A DNA stretch of 43,752 bases from the IMG/VR virus record IMGVR_UViG_2541047807_000012. One strand, given 5' to 3'. The notes beneath the pieces are model-generated. The model saw only the letters and a program-made list of their open reading frames with translations. It was not told the origin of the DNA and did no database searches. Shown here in pieces: positions 3,779-19,116 of this stretch (within the stretch, counting starts at the first letter, position 1; each line of letters opens with the position of its first letter). The DNA comes from a virus. Lineage: Duplodnaviria; Heunggongvirae; Uroviricota; Caudoviricetes. Both the position numbers and the translations under genes were made by a program.

Positions 3779-4140
3779 TATGCTCCAGCCTCCGGCGCTT
3801 TTGGCATTACTGCCCAGTGAGTGATATTGAAGTTTTCAAGGTCCCCGACCTGAAATGTCCACTGCCATTCTTCGGTTTCTTTTTGTCCCCAGGTGTACCA
3901 GAGAGAACGCCAGCCAATCAGCCAGCCTTCTCCGTTAGCATCAAATAACAGAACACTTTCATTTGCTGGTGGCAGTTCAGCTGACACTGGTATTATTTTG
4001 TTTTCCAGTGCCGCACATTTAGCTTCAAGCGCGTCGAATTTACGTACCAGGTACCCAGCATTTGTTTCGTTCACTTTCAGATCTCGCGGTACACATTTCC
4101 CGCGAAGAAACCCTTCCATTTCGAAAACATTCATGCGCAT
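3778..4140 (-). CDS. Hypothetical early protein (YfdS-like by position and size)
   Basis: 120 aa ORF, translationally coupled to neighbours in the leftward operon. Confidence 0.5.
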   Translation of the reverse strand: MRMNVFEMEGFLRGKCVPRDLKVNETNAGYLVRKFDALEAKCAALENKIIPVSAELPPANESVLLFDANGEGWLIGWRSLWYTWGQKETEEWQWTFQVGDLENFNITHWAVMPKAPEAGA

Positions 4141-4667
4141 TTGCGTAACTCCGATAACTCGTTAAAACGTTCCATAAACATCCCGTAGGCATGGCTAGGT
4201 GCCAGTGGAATCACGTTGAACATCTCTGTTGCCGGGATACCTTCCAGTACAGGCCAGAAAGAGCCATCATCAAGCCCGAGATCGCGGCGTTCGGTTGCCA
4301 GCATGATGAGATCGGCATATTTCACGGGCGTACTCATAACTGGGGGTAACCCGTATTTCTCACGGATTACGGCATCTATTTTTTCTTCCATCCGTTTATA
4401 GTCAGGAAGAAGGCGTTTCAGTGGCGCGGGAATGTCCTGACAATACGCTTCTGTTGCATCATGCATTAACGCTTCAAAAGCAAATTCCTGCGGTACCAGC
4501 TGGCTGCAAAGCACCGCATGTTGGGCGACGCTGTAGAAGTGTGAAAGATGTCCTGCAAAGCGACAGATATTTGAAAGGGAAACCGCGATATCGTTAATAA
4601 CGATGTCATCTTTATTTATCTTGTCATAATAAAAATGCTTCCCGGAAAAAGTTTTAATAAATGACAT
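4131..4667 (-). CDS. HD-domain phosphohydrolase (YfdR-like 5'-deoxynucleotidase family)
   Basis: HD-type metal-binding residues (H...HD...ALMHDATE). Start set at MSFIKTF, giving ~178 aa. Confidence 0.75.
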   Translation of the reverse strand: MSFIKTFSGKHFYYDKINKDDIVINDIAVSLSNICRFAGHLSHFYSVAQHAVLCSQLVPQEFAFEALMHDATEAYCQDIPAPLKRLLPDYKRMEEKIDAVIREKYGLPPVMSTPVKYADLIMLATERRDLGLDDGSFWPVLEGIPATEMFNVIPLAPSHAYGMFMERFNELSELRKCA

Positions 4668-4794
4668 TTTGTTCTCCACGTATATGCGCTGCACCGCGCT
4701 GAATTTGGGTAAAAGGAAGCCCTCACCATCCGGTGATTATTGAGTTAATTACGTTTCCATAAATGCCCCCGCAGGGGCATTTGCAGTAATGAAA

Positions 4795-5619
4795 TCAGGC
4801 GGTGAAAGTACCAATAAAGGTTTCTACTTTGCTGTCTCTGAATTTCTCAACAAGCAGATCACGAAATTCGTTAGCCATATCTTCCTGCACCGCTTCCAGC
4901 TGAATAATGCGCAGAACCAGTACAGGACGATCGCCAGTGATAATGCTGAGGCGTAATTTAAACGGACGTTCTTTCAGGCCTTCAAACGGAACGCATTTAA
5001 ATTCAAATGCCACTGGCATAATGTCTTTGGTTTTCGCTTCGACAGATTCCATCAGGGAGCGTTTGCCGCTGAAGTCATTATCTTCAAAATCAGCGGTCTG
5101 GTTTGCTTCAATCGTGATTTTACGGATTGCCGCAGCCGCTTTTGTTGCCTGAATGGCGTCACCATTAGCATCAAAGCCCACAAGGTAGTCGGCCCAGTCT
5201 TCAATCCATTCTGCCAGTGACTTCTGGGAGTTACGCTCGCCGTTAACAGACAACAGTGCAGAGAACGGTGCTGTCTTTTTCAGTTTGAGAGTGGCGGTGT
5301 TATCTGCGTGACCTGGTTCATTAATAGTACCCAGGTTAAGCACACTGACGGCACGCATATTATCAGCATCGATAAAGCAGCGGGTGCCTTCATCTGCAAG
5401 ATCTTTAGAATAACGGGTAAAGTCATCGATGCTGGCAGTGGAAAGCGCACCACGGAAACGGAAGCGATTTAAATTAAATTTTTCCAGATCATGAATGCGG
5501 AAATTCTCAGGCAATGCCACAGCATCGGCACCAATCTTACTGATAATTTCATTAACACCCTGAGCAGAAATAAGGGCATGGATTTGATTAATTGCGGTTG
5601 CGTCTAAGTTCTGAGACAT
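4795..5619 (-). CDS. YfdQ-family (DUF2303) prophage protein
   Basis: 274 aa, matching the size and recalled N-terminus of YfdQ-like proteins. Confidence 0.65.
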
Positions 5620-5684: not shown

Positions 5685-6047
5685 TTAATGACCTGCTGCG
5701 CGGAGTTTTCCGTCAGGCTCACCGGCAAGAGTCAGTAATTGTCCCTGGTCTTCCTGCAGAATAGTCAGGCGACCACCGCGATTGACATACATCGGCGTTT
5801 CGGTGGTGTCTTCTTCGGAAATTTTCCCGCGGTTAGTCGGGCGAACATATGAGAGTTTGTGTTTGATTTTCACACGGTTCTCATCAAATGGTTCGATTTC
5901 CAGGTTGAGTGAGACCTTACCTTTGGTTTTCGTGTTCATCACACCTGAAGCGACTTCACTGAGAACTGCGCCGATTTTGGTTTCAAATACGCCGCCGTCC
6001 AGCTCCCCGATAAATGCCTGCACATCAGTACTGCGTTCGCTAGCCAT
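5685..6047 (-). CDS. Hypothetical early-left protein (YfdP-like by position), first gene after the pL leader
   Basis: Start set at MASERS, which has a GAGGAG Shine-Dalgarno 7 nt upstream; gives 120 aa. The longer ORF-track start lacks an RBS. Confidence 0.5.
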   Translation of the reverse strand: MASERSTDVQAFIGELDGGVFETKIGAVLSEVASGVMNTKTKGKVSLNLEIEPFDENRVKIKHKLSYVRPTNRGKISEEDTTETPMYVNRGGRLTILQEDQGQLLTLAGEPDGKLRAAGH

Positions 6048-6095
6048 TTTGCTGCTCCTCATCATATCGGCCCTGCAAGGCCGATTAGTTTCTCC

Positions 6096-6184
6096 ACAAA
6101 ACAGAGAAGAACACCTGTGGTGGCAGCCGCCCGGATGGATTGGGTTATGAGCCTGTCGTCCGGTGATGCTCTTCTCTGTTTTGT
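6096..6184 (-). other. Large imperfect inverted repeat (18 bp arms, ~52 nt loop) in the pL leader
   Basis: ACAAAACAGAGAAGAaCA at 6096-6113 pairs with TGCTCTTCTCTGTTTTGT at 6167-6184 with one mismatch. Confidence 0.6.
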
Positions 6185-6230
6185 AAAAAGAGCGGTACCA
6201 GCCGGAAGCAAGGGTACAAGCTGGTACCGC
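6184..6230 (-). terminator. Candidate intrinsic terminator within the leftward leader
   Basis: Perfect 11 bp GC-rich stem (GCGGTACCAGC / GCTGGTACCGC) followed on the minus strand by UCUUUUUA. Confidence 0.5.
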
Positions 6231-6654
6231 CAAAGCAGTGGCTGTTGTGGTGGGGTTGTCACTCAGGCGTATGGTCAACCTGACAATCCGGTGTCCTCAA
6301 CGGGGAAAGAGTAACCCCGCCATACTTACCGCCGCGCCATTTCGCGGATTACCACAACGCTGAGAGCACTTAGCCAGTTACGGCACCACACTTTGTCGCG
6401 GCTCCATAAATGCCCTCATCGTTGCACCCTGGTCTCTTCCCAGGCGTCAAACCGGATCGCCACGCTGGTTAGGCGTCTTATCAGCATCATCATTGACTTG
6501 CACATTCCGGCTACCTGGTTTGTTTGCCCGAGCAAGGAGTGGATTGTCCCCTTTAACGTCCCCAGACCGCTAACGACGCATGTGCCATACGCCGTGTTAC
6601 AACCAAATTTTGTTAGTACCTTGTTTGTTGGTCTGGAAAGAAAGATAAAATGAA

Positions 6655-6693
6655 GTTGCGCATTATGCAAGTGTTTTTATTGCGAGATGTGCA
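6655..6693. promoter_or_regulatory. oL-like operator pair / pL region
   Basis: Two 15 bp sites TTGCGCATTATGCAA and TTGCGAGATGTGCAA share the pattern TTGCG-N5-(T/A)GCAA with a site in the cI-cro intergenic region. Confidence 0.55.
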
Positions 6694-6708
6694 ATTTTGT
6701 GGGTAATG

Positions 6709-6729
6709 AAAAGCCACCTTCGGGTGGCT
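6709..6729 (-). terminator. Intrinsic terminator downstream of cI
   Basis: Hairpin AGCCACC-ttcg-GGTGGCT followed by a T-run on the minus strand, just 3' of the cI stop. Confidence 0.6.
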
Positions 6730-6749
6730 AATTGATGAGGAGGTAAGGG

Positions 6750-7442
6750 TTAATTGTGTCGCTTAAGGGTTTGTGACTGGCTGATTAAGACCTTTCCAAA
6801 GACCATAAACCGGTGTTCATTTTCGCTGGTAATTCCCCATTCACGGTAAATCTGGTTATCAGAAATCACCAGTAGTTTGTCAGGTATCATTTGCAGTCGT
6901 TTGACATAAATTTTATCATCAAAACCAAATACATAGATACCATCCCCATCAAACTGATTGATACTTACATCAACGAAGATGAGATCTCCTGGCTCAATGG
7001 TTGGACACATACTGTCCCCACGAACGTTGATAACTTTAATGTGATTGGCTGGCCGTCCGCCAAACATCGATACAGCATTATCAGTTCTGTATTCAATGGC
7101 ATGAATCACATCAATGACATCACCGCCTTGGATAAGGCCATTTCCCGCACTGGCACTGACATCCAGCATTTCAATACGGAATACATCCTTCACCTGCGCA
7201 ACATCCTCACTAATACTGTTTTTATATACAGTATTACTTTTGAGGTCTGAGGTAAAGAGATCAGCAATATCAACACCTAAGCTCCTGGCAATATTACTCA
7301 GGGCTTGTTCAGTGAATTGTTTCTGCTTACCTGTTTCCAGGCGTGAGATATTCGCCGCATCCACTCCTATTGCTTCAGCGAGATCGGCGATTTTCATGTT
7401 CTTCGCCTGGCGAAGTTGTCTGACTCGATTTCCTATGTTCAT
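6750..7442 (-). CDS. cI: CI-like prophage repressor (HTH_XRE + S24 LexA-like peptidase)
   Basis: 230 aa. N-terminal HTH (QAKNMKIADLAEAIGVDAANISRLETGK) and a C-terminal S24 domain with the Ser (GDSM) and Lys (KRL) catalytic pattern. Divergent from cro. Confidence 0.9.
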   Translation of the reverse strand: MNIGNRVRQLRQAKNMKIADLAEAIGVDAANISRLETGKQKQFTEQALSNIARSLGVDIADLFTSDLKSNTVYKNSISEDVAQVKDVFRIEMLDVSASAGNGLIQGGDVIDVIHAIEYRTDNAVSMFGGRPANHIKVINVRGDSMCPTIEPGDLIFVDVSINQFDGDGIYVFGFDDKIYVKRLQMIPDKLLVISDNQIYREWGITSENEHRFMVFGKVLISQSQTLKRHN

Positions 7443-7539
7443 GCGTTTATTACATTTCTTTATTGCGCGTTAAGCAAATCAACTTGCGCAAAATATTTGC
7501 GTGAAATAATATGCTTCTCACGCAATATGTGGAGGTTAT
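7443..7539. promoter_or_regulatory. oR / pR-pRM divergent promoter-operator region
   Basis: Contains TTGCGCGTTAAGCAA (7463-7477), the palindrome CGCAAAATATTTGCG (7487-7501) and the inverted pair TTGCGTGA...TCACGCAA. Confidence 0.6.
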
Positions 7540-7800
7540 ATGCAATCACCATTACGAAATGTGCGTAAGGCGCACGGATTTACTTTGCAGCATGTTGCTG
7601 CGGGCGTTCAGGTCAATCCAGCGACGCTGAGTCGTATTGAAAGACTGGAACAAATTCCATCTATCGATCTTGCAGAACGTCTAGCCAATTTTTTTAAGGG
7701 TGAAATCAGCGAAATGCAGATTCTTTATCCGGCACGTTTTCAATCTAGCCAAAACCAGAATGGGTTTAAACCACAGGAACAGGAGGTAAGCCGTGGGTAA
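7540..7800 (+). CDS. cro: Cro-like HTH regulator
   Basis: 86 aa with an HTH (FTLQHVAAGVQVNPATLSRIE), transcribed divergently from cI. Confidence 0.8.
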   Translation: MQSPLRNVRKAHGFTLQHVAAGVQVNPATLSRIERLEQIPSIDLAERLANFFKGEISEMQILYPARFQSSQNQNGFKPQEQEVSRG

Positions 7801-8344
7801 GCATCACTGGAAAGTGGAAAAACAACCTGACTGGTACGTGAAAGCTGTCAGAAAAACTATCGCGGCATTGCCAGGTGGTTACGCTGAAGCTGCTGACTGG
7901 CTGGATGTAACAGAGAACGCTTTATTCAACCGCCTTCGTGCAGATGGCGATCAGATTTTCCCGCTGGGATGGGCAATGATTTTACAGCGCGCGGCTGGCA
8001 CTCACTACATTGCGGATGCTGTCGCACAGTCTGCTGGTGGGGTGTTTGTATCACTTCCTGAAATTGAGGAGGTAGAGAACGCTGATATCAACCAACGCCT
8101 GCTGGAAGTCATTGAACAGATCGGGAGTTACTCAAAGCAGATTCGTTCGGCAATCGAAGATGGGGTAGTGGAGCCACACGAACAAACAGCAATTAATGAT
8201 GAGTTGTATCTGTCGATTTCGAAGCTCCAGGAGCATGCGGCACTGGTCTACAAAATTTTCTGCGTTCCAGAAAAGAGTGACGCCCGCGAGTGTGCAGCTC
8301 CGGGCGTCGTGGCGTTTTGTGTCTGTGGAGAAACTAACGCATGA
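7793..8344 (+). CDS. CII-like / YdaT-like phage regulatory protein
   Basis: 183 aa; GTG start with an AGGAGG Shine-Dalgarno. Position after cro. Family assignment is from recall only. Confidence 0.45.
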   Translation: MGKHHWKVEKQPDWYVKAVRKTIAALPGGYAEAADWLDVTENALFNRLRADGDQIFPLGWAMILQRAAGTHYIADAVAQSAGGVFVSLPEIEEVENADINQRLLEVIEQIGSYSKQIRSAIEDGVVEPHEQTAINDELYLSISKLQEHAALVYKIFCVPEKSDARECAAPGVVAFCVCGETNA

Positions 8345-18697: not shown

Positions 18698-18913
18698 ATG
18701 ATGTCTAACAAAATGACTGGTTTAGTGAAATGGTTTAACCCTGAAAAAGGTTTTGGTTTCATCACGCCGAAAGATGGTAGCAAAGATGTGTTTGTCCATT
18801 TCTCAGTTATTCAGAGCAACGATTTCAAAACGTTAACTGAGAATCAGGAAGTCGAATTTGGTATTGAGAACGGACCTAAAGGCCCCGCGGCTGTTCATGT
18901 AGTGGCACTTTGA
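18698..18913 (+). CDS. cspI: Cold-shock protein CspI-like
   Basis: [35 protein letters not shown]...[13 protein letters not shown]. Confidence 0.9.
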
Positions 18914-19116
18914 GGTAGAAAATATTACAAACCATATTCACTTTAGATGCCCGTGTTGCCATGGTTCTCAGTATAGAACATCATCTTTTGATGTTTCTGA
19001 CAGGAATCCTTTCGGGGCAAAATGTATCTTTTGTAAATCAATGATGATTACATTTGATAATATTTCACAATACTTAAATGTTAGCCGTCTGTCGTTAGAT
19101 TTAAGAAAGTGAAAAT

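Follow-up and report, generated by a model that had tools for sequence, protein, structure and literature searches.

The window analysed here, the whole 43,752-nt stretch of a Caudoviricetes virus (IMG/VR record IMGVR_UViG_2541047807_000012), raises the question of what occupies the long interval between the leftward promoter pL and the first leftward gene. This yfdP-like gene (phrog_204, E = 1e-49) opens a left operon of yfdP, yfdQ, yfdR, two unknowns, and xis. The initial annotation had described the interval as ORF-poor and as holding or adjoining terminators, operators, repeats, and hairpins; all of these features lie where it had placed them or close by (Table 1). Between pL and the yfdP-like ATG there is no credible ORF, those on either strand being short and lacking a Shine-Dalgarno sequence. 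None matches Pfam, and their only PHROG matches are to two families of unknown function, one through a minus-strand ORF and one through a plus-strand ORF. Database ORFs lie on both strands of the leader (mEp460_036 and mEp460_037; phrog_33599 and phrog_3651). We interpret the matching PHROG families as annotation artefacts and flag them as spurious "hypothetical protein" families built on leader RNA. In addition, domain b contains indels of 1 to 2 nt within its conserved blocks that would break any reading frame.

Transcription from pL, whose −35 element is overlapped by OL1, probably starts near position 6635, which sets the leader length at about 590 nt. The interval most likely serves as the leader of the pL transcript and is non-coding. 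Its modules follow one another in the order b, Hx1, c, T1, Hx2, and a small hairpin, after which come the ribosome-binding site and the yfdP-like gene itself, and the fold of the whole leader has a z score of −3.3. The same leader is found in phage mEp460 at 89% identity. It also occurs in the cdtI and Stx2c phages, where its first 567 nt are about 98% identical, and in part in SfII, which has at least the terminator and the long hairpin. The synteny of repressor, leader, yfdP, yfdQ, and yfdR extends to Erwinia and Izhakiella prophages.

Table 1. Features of the pL leader and its surroundings, in the direction of leftward transcription (positions are those of the window).
Feature	Position	Strand	Details and basis
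cI-end intrinsic terminator hairpin	6712..6729	-	Terminator scan
Two OL operators	6656-6670 and 6680-6694		Exact TTGCRN6GCAA; same pattern as OR site 7463-7477
pL promoter	6642..6670	-	-35 TTGCAT 6665-6670, 17-nt spacer, -10 TATCTT 6642-6647; read from sequence
Domain b	6400..6607	-	Structured RNA of ~210 nt, pseudoknotted; 47 distinct homologues, covariation
b helix H1	6574-6594	-	
b helix H2	6562-6570 with 6509-6518	-	
b invariant motif	6497-6515	-	GGUAGCCGGAAUGUGCAAG
b helix H4	6462-6476	-	Loop pseudoknots with 6446-6455
b helix H5	6428-6444	-	GAAGAGA loop
Helix Hx1	6362..6417	-	GAGGGCAUUU 6408-6417 pairs with "joint" AAGUGCUCUC 6362-6371; variable insert between
Domain c	6244..6358	-	Structured RNA of ~115 nt; 41 distinct homologues, covariation
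c helix P1	6351-6358 with 6244-6251	-	
c helix P2	6332-6347	-	
c helices P3 and P3b	6289-6331	-	
c helix P4	6254-6289	-	
c pseudoknot		-	GUAUGG with CCAUAC
T1 intrinsic terminator hairpin	6184..6236	-	Stem 6191-6202 with 6220-6231 (12 pairs), U-tract 6185-6189
Hx2 long hairpin	6096..6184	-	18-bp arms, 6167-6184 and 6096-6113; RNase III substrate type
Conserved loop of Hx2 inner hairpin	6137-6153	-	GGCUCAUAACCCAAUCC
Small hairpin beside ribosome-binding site	6066..6085	-	Hairpin scan and folding
Start of yfdP-like gene, first of left operon	6045..6060	-	Shine-Dalgarno GAGGAG 6055-6060, ATG at 6047; ORF list

The earlier view of the interval as structured, non-coding, and conserved stands, on the combined weight of the ORF list, the Pfam and PHROG searches, the frame-breaking indels, and the compensatory changes given below; what it had overlooked is that the region is a chain of two widespread domains and repeated helix units. 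A lack of sequence and structure conservation in related phages, which would have spoken against that view, was not seen: covariance analysis across relatives, proposed at that stage, yields compensatory changes in b, c, and Hx2, and all three are conserved. They are real RNA structures of the minus strand, because their many G-U pairs would become A-C mismatches on the opposite strand. The proposed Rfam search returned no family for the leader domains: with Rfam 15 at the gathering threshold and E ≤ 10, the window and 13 related loci gave no match on a leader and otherwise only tRNAs and one STnc150, the latter in locus L257 far from its leader.

Domain b begins about 25 to 30 nt past the inferred pL start. 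Across its 47 distinct homologues, 94.6% of cells are paired and 108 cells are changed on both sides, compared with 35 ± 5 in shuffles, none of 500 of which scored as high. It is present in 1832 of 5426 complete E. coli genomes (34%), annotated in none of them, and also in P1 and in phiV10/epsilon15-like phages. In mEp390 the domain lies just after the repressor gene and in P1 it lies 2.3 kb from the promoter, while elsewhere it stands in front of a tRNA-Arg within a stand-alone unit inside late operons; some short stand-alone b units end in two tandem terminators. A same-strand tRNA directly adjoins b in about 12 of the 47 loci. The invariant motif occurs once in the window, and no second copy of b was found there, including after pR.

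Domain c shows compensatory change at 12 pairs (4.4 ± 1.3 when shuffled, 0 of 500 shuffles as high), and six of the eight P4 pairs covary. Its covariance model matches the window only at 6239-6374, with no second copy, including after pR. In the E. coli K-12 prophage Qin, a segment 93% identical to the domain lies immediately 5′ of DicF. The domain also overlaps a stretch of P1 that carries the annotation "dicF-like region" and follows closely on Pban, a promoter controlled by C1. Most listed variants carry a terminator-type hairpin after c, far more variable in sequence than c itself and separated from it by a spacer of about 9 to more than 60 nt. As P1 illustrates, b and c are found apart from each other, and both also occur outside a pL context in unrelated phage types and positions. 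In the annotated examples, b/c units always lie upstream of co-directional genes; a script that scored the direction of the next ORF downstream of b/c was uninformative, spurious ORFs in the GC-rich RNA dominating its output. We found no description of b or c in the literature. As a candidate tRNA or tmRNA, c was rejected, since ARAGORN reported neither in the window and c is no recognisable tRNA.

Between the two domains, the joint strand of Hx1 runs into the GUUGUGG stem of c. Covarying versions of this helix, recognised by eye rather than by formal count, number three among relatives: GAGAGCAUUG/CAGUGCUCUU, GAGAGCGCACUUC/GGAGUGCGCUCCC, and, in Qin, AAGCGCAUGG/CCGUGCGCUU. The joint motif recurs at module borders, and a tRNA-Arg(UCU) fills the same GUUGUGG...CCACAAC socket as domain c. 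Considered as an rrn boxA, the joint matched a median of 6 of 13 positions and was discarded for want of conservation.

The inverted repeat with 18-bp arms noted initially is Hx2, which resembles the Hx1 helix-plus-joint unit in sequence and folds with −40.5 kcal/mol (z = −5.8). Among 12 sequences, 4 of 17 pairs are compensatory, with a covariation score of 0.170 against 0.090 ± 0.015 and none of 500 shuffles as high. Its duplex, kept by this compensatory change, falls within the uninterrupted length of about 18 to 22 bp of RNase III-type substrates, and cleavage here is a prediction. One of the further small hairpins mentioned earlier lies beside the ribosome-binding site; it is kept in relatives with changed stems (CGGCC/GGCCG, CGACC/GGUCG, and GCGGC/GCCGC).

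The internal hairpin with its U-tract is confirmed as an intrinsic-terminator-type element ahead of the left operon, T1, whose 12-pair stem is directly followed by CUUUUUA (6184-6190) with its run of five U. It folds with −23.7 kcal/mol (z = −5.2), and none of 200 shuffles was as stable. A simple terminator scan missed T1, which we attribute to its loop of 15 to 17 nt being longer than the scan allows. The promoter scan gave no minus-strand promoter-like site between T1 and the yfdP-like gene, so this gene appears to depend on read-through.

The position of T1 corresponds to that of DicF in Qin (dicBF operon, RF00039), making it a positional homologue and the initial suggestion of an sRNA a reasonable one. 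Both loci share the order Hx helix, joint, c, linker, hairpin with U-tract, and early genes; both lie within a repressor-controlled early operon, have UUUGGCGGUAYCAG at the hairpin base, and present an RNase III-suited duplex 3′ of the terminator. The Qin/P1 alignment and the variant survey likewise place a hairpin with U-tract directly 3′ of conserved domain c in a repressor-controlled early operon. By this shared layout, c together with T1 makes up the very unit in which DicF lies in Qin. The surroundings differ: in the window a pL leader with domain b lies ahead and yfdP, yfdQ, and yfdR follow, whereas the Qin unit comes after ydfABC and is followed by dicB.

The RNAs themselves also differ. 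Relative to DicF, a 19-nt deletion in T1 takes out the 5′ end with the seed UUUCUGGUGAC, which DicF uses for xylR and pykA (PMC5069750), and the hairpin loop is different and lacks the match to the ftsZ ribosome-binding site. In a crude whole-molecule test of duplex energy against ftsZ, the window hairpin scored z = +0.64, whereas most canonical DicF variants fell between −1.7 and −2.9 and the variant L033 at −2.07. The Rfam DicF model, with which the same tool gives Qin DicF 76.7 bits, found nothing in the window, whether at the gathering threshold or at E ≤ 10. With both of the known seeds gone, the T1 RNA does not qualify as a functional DicF. The sRNA DicF has long been under study. Its 3′ end arises by termination or RNase III cleavage and its 5′ end by RNase E, and a 2016 study found no relatives in phage genome databases (PMC5069750). 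The DicF-type locus architecture is nevertheless present in early leaders of functional phages, namely mEp460, the cdtI and Stx2c phages, and P1, with at least the terminator and long hairpin in SfII; its best-conserved part is the pseudoknotted domain in front, not DicF. The Pas sRNAs (described in a preprint) were considered as b/c-type loci and set apart by their neighbours (Q, RusA, lysis, and structural genes), apparently being different.

How might such a leader work? Our leading explanation, which we regard as evenly poised between right and wrong, is that transcription of the left operon is attenuated at T1 and that the early leader, itself non-coding, yields a structured RNA or the precursor of an sRNA. 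Once pL is derepressed, RNA polymerase would transcribe b and c, and a large share of transcripts would stop at T1, attenuating the left operon and releasing a structured RNA of about 450 nt. This RNA would have the DicF-like hairpin at its 3′ end, and trimming of the kind that RNase E performs on DicF may turn that hairpin into an sRNA. Transcripts that read through would include Hx2, whose long duplex suits RNase III; its cleavage would part the RNA portion from the mRNA and, with the small hairpin, would set yfdP translation. Such cleavage would parallel the RNase III site of the lambda N leader and the 72-nt form of DicF. The lambda leader likewise places a long hairpin, with a possible RNase III site modulating translation, between an early promoter and the first left-operon gene. 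However, lambda encodes N and has, besides nutL, a hairpin sensitive to RNase III ahead of the ribosome-binding site of N, whereas the window has no N, no conserved boxA/boxB, and a yfdP-like first gene.

Some observations bear against attenuation, or against a plain attenuator. The loop of T1 could make the terminator leaky. The depth of b/c conservation, the invariant junctions, and the pseudoknots exceed the needs of a simple attenuator, and b and c are apart in P1, with b before tRNA-Arg in stand-alone late-operon units. That b and c are strongly conserved in other contexts too implies that they also serve some function of their own, and their occurrence in separate contexts indicates that this function is context-independent.

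Another reading is that b and c are stable trans-acting RNAs, cut from the early transcript and working on a host or phage protein. They would resemble the large tRNA-associated phage RNAs GOLLD and ROOL and could, for instance, serve host takeover or anti-defence, with the pL leader as one of several expression sites. We consider this unlikely, although several features are in keeping with it: the independent occurrence of b and c across unrelated types of phage and in different positions, the tRNAs beside b and in the socket of c, the tandem terminators that close some units as in stand-alone RNA genes, and invariant junctions and pseudoknots typical of partner-binding RNAs. P4 CI, P1/P7 C4, GOLLD, and ROOL offer likenesses as non-coding RNAs from phage early leaders, with tRNA association and, putatively, tRNA-type processing, and in their modular, ornate architecture in prophages. 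Yet no sequence or model match links them to the window, and their host range differs (Enterobacterales); the Rfam models of GOLLD and ROOL gave no match, leaving only prophage location and tRNA adjacency in common. The absence of any other Rfam match weighs against a trans-acting role, and the constant placement of annotated units upstream of co-directional genes fits a leader role as well.

Processive antitermination by the nascent RNA, in the style of HK022 put or Bacillus EAR, would have b and/or c bind the transcribing polymerase, possibly together with host Nus factors, and help it past T1 and subsequent terminators in place of the missing N. The initial annotation had found no Arg-rich N-like ORF, and this holds for the leader and the left operon: Pfam and PHROG identified no N-like protein among leader ORFs or left-operon proteins, no conserved small gene with an N-type motif turned up among the leader ORFs, and none was seen among the listed right-operon ORFs, which were covered by inspection rather than profile search. 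The leader also lacks a conserved boxA (CGCUCUUA) with a boxB hairpin. The boxA-like string CGCUCUUUUUA singled out earlier does exist, but it is the 3′ arm of T1 plus its U-tract, and because the corresponding positions vary among close relatives (GCU, GUC, GCC, and GAC), it is not under selection as a boxA.

Besides the absence of N, antitermination is favoured by the placement of b just past the inferred pL start, as putL in HK022, by c just after Pban in P1, and by the way b follows closely on the repressor gene of mEp390. Expression of ban and dicB through the terminator that follows c also counts for it. HK022 and the window share a structured RNA just past pL, the absence of N, a lambdoid phage background, and terminators downstream. 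The put-like mechanism suggested initially nevertheless found no backing, since the leader has no similarity to the HK022 putL/putR immunity region beyond chance words of 9 to 10 nt. The put RNA is about 70 nt long with two stems and has copies after pL and pR, whereas the window's domains, of 115 and about 210 nt with pseudoknots, are each single and absent after pR. Antitermination by put is factor-independent, acting via the β′ zinc-binding domain, and does not need Nus factors. We take the mEp collection to include the relatives mEp460 and mEp390. The mEp phages were collected as Nus-dependent (PMC11893012), which speaks for antitermination and yet sets these relatives apart from put. The distance of b from the promoter in P1, the short stand-alone units with two tandem terminators, and the unexpected retention of a terminator immediately 3′ of an antiterminator RNA are further difficulties, and overall we rate antitermination as rather improbable.

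A riboswitch-like attenuator, in which c (or b and c) senses a metabolite, ion, tRNA, or protein and decides between termination at T1 and read-through, would match the usual pattern of a conserved aptamer followed by an expression platform of variable sequence. We think it very unlikely: inspection by eye revealed no convincing pairing of c with T1 that is conserved and mutually exclusive with the terminator fold, the c-T1 spacer varies widely in length, and a tRNA can stand in for c before the same type of terminator. Least credible, and largely refuted, is that small protein genes or sites acting as DNA (recombination boundaries or protein-binding sites, for example), rather than RNA, account for the conservation; the database ORFs on both strands, the repeated joint motif, and the inversion of Hx2 seen in Serratia symbiotica could be read that way, but compensatory changes, minus-strand-specific G-U asymmetry, frame-breaking indels, and family matches confined to PHROGs of unknown function on both strands, read as artefacts, contradict it.

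Tentatively, and with more doubt than attaches to attenuation at T1, b, c, and the helix-and-joint units, with interchangeable cargo (c, tRNA-Arg, and other domains on the same closing stem), may form a class of large, modular RNAs, previously undescribed, that temperate enterobacterial phages make early. In this view DicF is the 3′-terminal piece of one member, and the class would have a biochemical function of its own in N-less phages, such as the modification of RNA polymerase or of termination, or the binding of a host factor. Domain b, the larger of the two, occurs in one third of complete E. coli genomes and in several phage families; it is unannotated there and absent from Rfam. If b and c control termination, left-operon expression in N-less lambdoid phages would be explained; if they act in trans, they would be new phage RNAs. 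The T1 loop of some relatives contains both a Shine-Dalgarno sequence and a start codon; the window's loop has neither, and control at T1 may therefore differ between lineages.

A lambdoid prophage of SfV / SfII / mEp460 / cdtI type makes up the window, and its left operon holds, besides the yfdP-, yfdQ- and yfdR-like genes, two unknowns and xis. Two exact TTGCRN6GCAA operators (6656-6670 and 6680-6694), the same as the OR site, accompany pL, and because transcription is inferred to start near 6635, the leader is about 590 nt long. A fourth exact operator-type palindrome (TTGCACAGGCCGCAA, 9129-9143) lies within the Rha-like gene, distant from OL and OR.

Positions of the features discussed
Feature	Position	Strand	Remark
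cI	6750-7442	-	
cro	7540-7800	+	
CII (CP76) homologue	7793-8344	+	
yfdP-like gene	5685-6047		left operon
yfdQ-like gene	4795-5619		left operon
yfdR-like gene	4131-4694		left operon
cI terminator	6712-6729		
pL	6665-6670 and 6642-6647		TTGCAT-17-TATCTT, read from sequence
Domain b	6400-6607	-	
Hx1	6408-6417 with 6362-6371		helix
Domain c	6244-6358	-	
T1	6191-6231	-	hairpin, then U5
Hx2	6096-6113 with 6167-6184	-	18-bp inverted repeat
cspA thermoregulator 5' UTR	15088-15527	+	full length; cold-shock gene 15249-15464
cspA thermoregulator 5' UTR	18554-18959	+	full length; cold-shock gene 18698-18913
Third csp-like ORF	14736-14948	-	

The leader is non-coding and carries conserved RNA folds on its transcribed strand. 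As the initial annotation had it, there is no convincing ORF in the interval: those present are short, lack a Shine-Dalgarno sequence, occur on both strands and match nothing in Pfam, and their only PHROG matches are to 'unknown function' families (one minus-strand and one plus-strand ORF), a pattern that we take to mark annotation artefacts. These families, phrog_33599 (minus strand) and phrog_3651 (plus strand), are translations of the leader (window 6062-6314), as are the 'hypothetical proteins' annotated in mEp460 (mEp460_036, mEp460_037) and other phages; all are probably spurious. Nor is an N-like protein, whose gene had also been reported missing, encoded among the leader ORFs or in the left operon, and none is seen in a listing of the right-operon ORFs.

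The leader as a whole folds with z = -3.3, and both of the prominent hairpins noted initially are real: the GC-rich, U-tract-bearing T1 reaches -23.7 kcal/mol (z = -5.2) and the long hairpin Hx2 -40.5 kcal/mol (z = -5.8). Covariance analysis across homologues, which the initial annotation had proposed, places domains b and c and Hx2 above shuffled alignments, none of 500 scoring as high in each case. Domain c was examined in 41 distinct sequences, including Citrobacter, Serratia, Trabulsiella, Erwinia, Izhakiella and phage P1. Its model, consisting of a closing stem P1, hairpin P2, P3/P3b, P4 and a GUAUGG/CCAUAC pseudoknot, has 94.6% of cells paired, with 12 pairs showing compensatory change (six of the eight in P4 covary) against 4.4 +/- 1.3 in shuffles and 0-6 in controls whose partners were slid by 1-3 columns. 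Domain c is thus a structured RNA, present once in the window by covariance model, and its frequent G-U pairs place it on the pL-transcribed strand. Among 102 distinct viral copies it is far better conserved than the hairpin 3' of it, which comes in five sequence types or more, the majority with a U-tract at the end.

Domain b is the second structured RNA of the leader. Five helices, including a pseudoknot, are supported across 47 distinct sequences: a change on both sides is seen in 108 cells, compared with 35 +/- 5 in shuffles, and covariation scores 0.257 compared with 0.118. Conservation of GGUAGCCGGAAUGUGCAAG has to be read with the knowledge that this stretch contains the 17-nt pattern by which the loci were retrieved. 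Other junction sequences are near-invariant, and indels of 1-2 nt within conserved blocks exclude coding. Domain b occurs once in the window and in 1832 of 5426 complete E. coli genomes, annotated in none. Matches to window 6352-6600 are found in P1, in the interval from tRNA-Ile to ban; in mEp390, where the repressor gene immediately precedes the match; in phiV10/epsilon15-like phages, where a tRNA-Arg(UCU) follows directly and the terminase and portal genes lie on either side; and in Klebsiella and Enterobacter phages. In about 12 of the 47 loci, a same-strand tRNA adjoins domain b. In phiV10, SPN1S and related Uetakevirus (L002 / L006 / L261) the unit stands alone on the opposite strand in the terminase-portal gap, with tRNA-Arg(UCU) directly 3' in L002 and L006, the two loci checked for it. 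Immediately 5' of b, L002, L006 and related viral contigs have an inverted repeat, TTATTACC...GGTAA.

Hx2, whose sequence is similar to the Hx units, shows compensatory change at 4 of 17 pairs among 12 sequences (covariation score 0.170 against 0.090), and a small hairpin adjoining the ribosome-binding site keeps its shape across relatives with differing stems. In a Serratia symbiotica locus (L244 6335-6664, minus strand) the entire Hx2 lies in the opposite orientation to its flanks, with the conserved loop motif as the reverse complement GGGUUGGGUUAUGAGCCC, which reflects either inverted-repeat-mediated inversion or a dispensable loop sequence.

Many loci share one order of modules, starting from an operator-flanked promoter followed by domain b, the Hx helix (covariation seen by eye), which has the joint AGUGCKCUY..CGUUGUGG as its 3' strand, a domain with GUUGUGG...CCACAAC as closing stem (c, tRNA-Arg or other folds), a terminator at the DicF position, and further hairpins or a second terminator. 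The leaders of mEp460, cdtI, 2H10 and Stx2c phages are 89-98% identical to that of the window, and the synteny of repressor, leader, yfdP, yfdQ and yfdR is kept in Erwinia and Izhakiella prophages.

Part of the leader is found in 4768 of 5426 complete E. coli genomes. The K-12 match (window 6252-6358) lies in the ydfC-dicB interval of prophage Qin, immediately 5' of DicF, and aligns over about 110 nt at 93% identity; 3' of this block, a 19-nt deletion in the window takes out the DicF 5' end, after which both share UUUGGCGGUAYCAG before the hairpin body differs. By this alignment, the leader is homologous to the dicF locus. The Qin spacer (L001 3740-4330, minus strand) contains, along with the joint, domain c and DicF, an Hx helix formed by AAGCGCAUGG and CCGUGCGCUU; the sequence 3' of DicF (GUGGUGAAUGCGGCUGAGCGC) is similar to the opening part of a further domain type of phage leaders. 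In P1 the element matched in K-12 recurs just after the C1-controlled Pban promoter and is annotated 'dicF-like region', so the similarity to the dicF flank had already been noticed. As RNA structures, b and c are undescribed in Rfam 15 and the searchable literature, a scope outside which the 1994 dicF-homologue and P1 genome papers fall; an earlier description may exist.

We rejected the window hairpin as a working DicF: the 5' seed is absent, and the hairpin pairs with the ftsZ ribosome-binding site no better than expected by chance (z = +0.64, against -1.7 to -2.9 for most canonical DicF variants). In another locus (L033 5437-5652, minus strand) the loop of the DicF-position hairpin, AGUUUCUCUCC, is a perfect 11-nt complement of that site (GGAGAGAAACU), by eye a longer uninterrupted match to E. 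coli ftsZ than canonical DicF's. Relatives from Erwinia (L256), Izhakiella (L257), Trabulsiella (L254) and Serratia (L244), as well as L140 and L047, have a mini-ORF (MFYR, MFCR or MFWL...) whose Shine-Dalgarno sequence and AUG or GUG start codon sit in the loop of the DicF-position terminator, and whose initial codons make up the terminator's 3' arm. This arrangement suggests a translation-sensitive attenuator in those relatives; the window is without these elements.

T1 is a stable terminator-type hairpin 5' of the left operon, and no promoter-like site was found between it and the operon. In the reading we favour, T1 would attenuate the operon, stopping at T1 would free a structured RNA or sRNA precursor, and read-through transcripts would be cut by RNase III at Hx2, as the lambda N leader is. 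RNase III cleavage has been described for the 72-nt form of DicF (PMC5069750). Domains b and c both occur independently in other phage contexts, which argues that they do more than simple attenuation. Less likely rival readings are processive antitermination mediated by the RNA, stable RNAs acting in trans, and a riboswitch-like sensor. The string first taken for boxA, CGCUCUUUUUA, was rejected, as it belongs to the terminator's 3' arm and differs among relatives; the joint motif bears only a weak resemblance to boxA. An Rfam search, also proposed initially, matched no family to the leader in the window or 13 related loci. Put-type mechanisms are not known to need Nus factors. The HK022 put-like RNA initially suggested is a poor fit with the mEp phages, a collection assembled as Nus-dependent (PMC11893012), and the put region of HK022 shows no similarity with the leader.

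Elsewhere in the window, Rfam matches to isrK (8701-8777, plus strand, 63.7 bits) and C4 antisense RNA (8802-8889, plus strand, 82.8 bits) fall within the 382-aa 'Rha' ORF (8341-9489). A Pfam Phage_ASH match (residues 117-212) overlies both RNA genes, and the N-terminal half of this ORF is therefore probably not coding; the antirepressor is likely controlled by a P1/P7-type C4 RNA. The cspA-type 5' UTR/cold-shock loci and the third csp-like ORF flank the prophage lysis genes.
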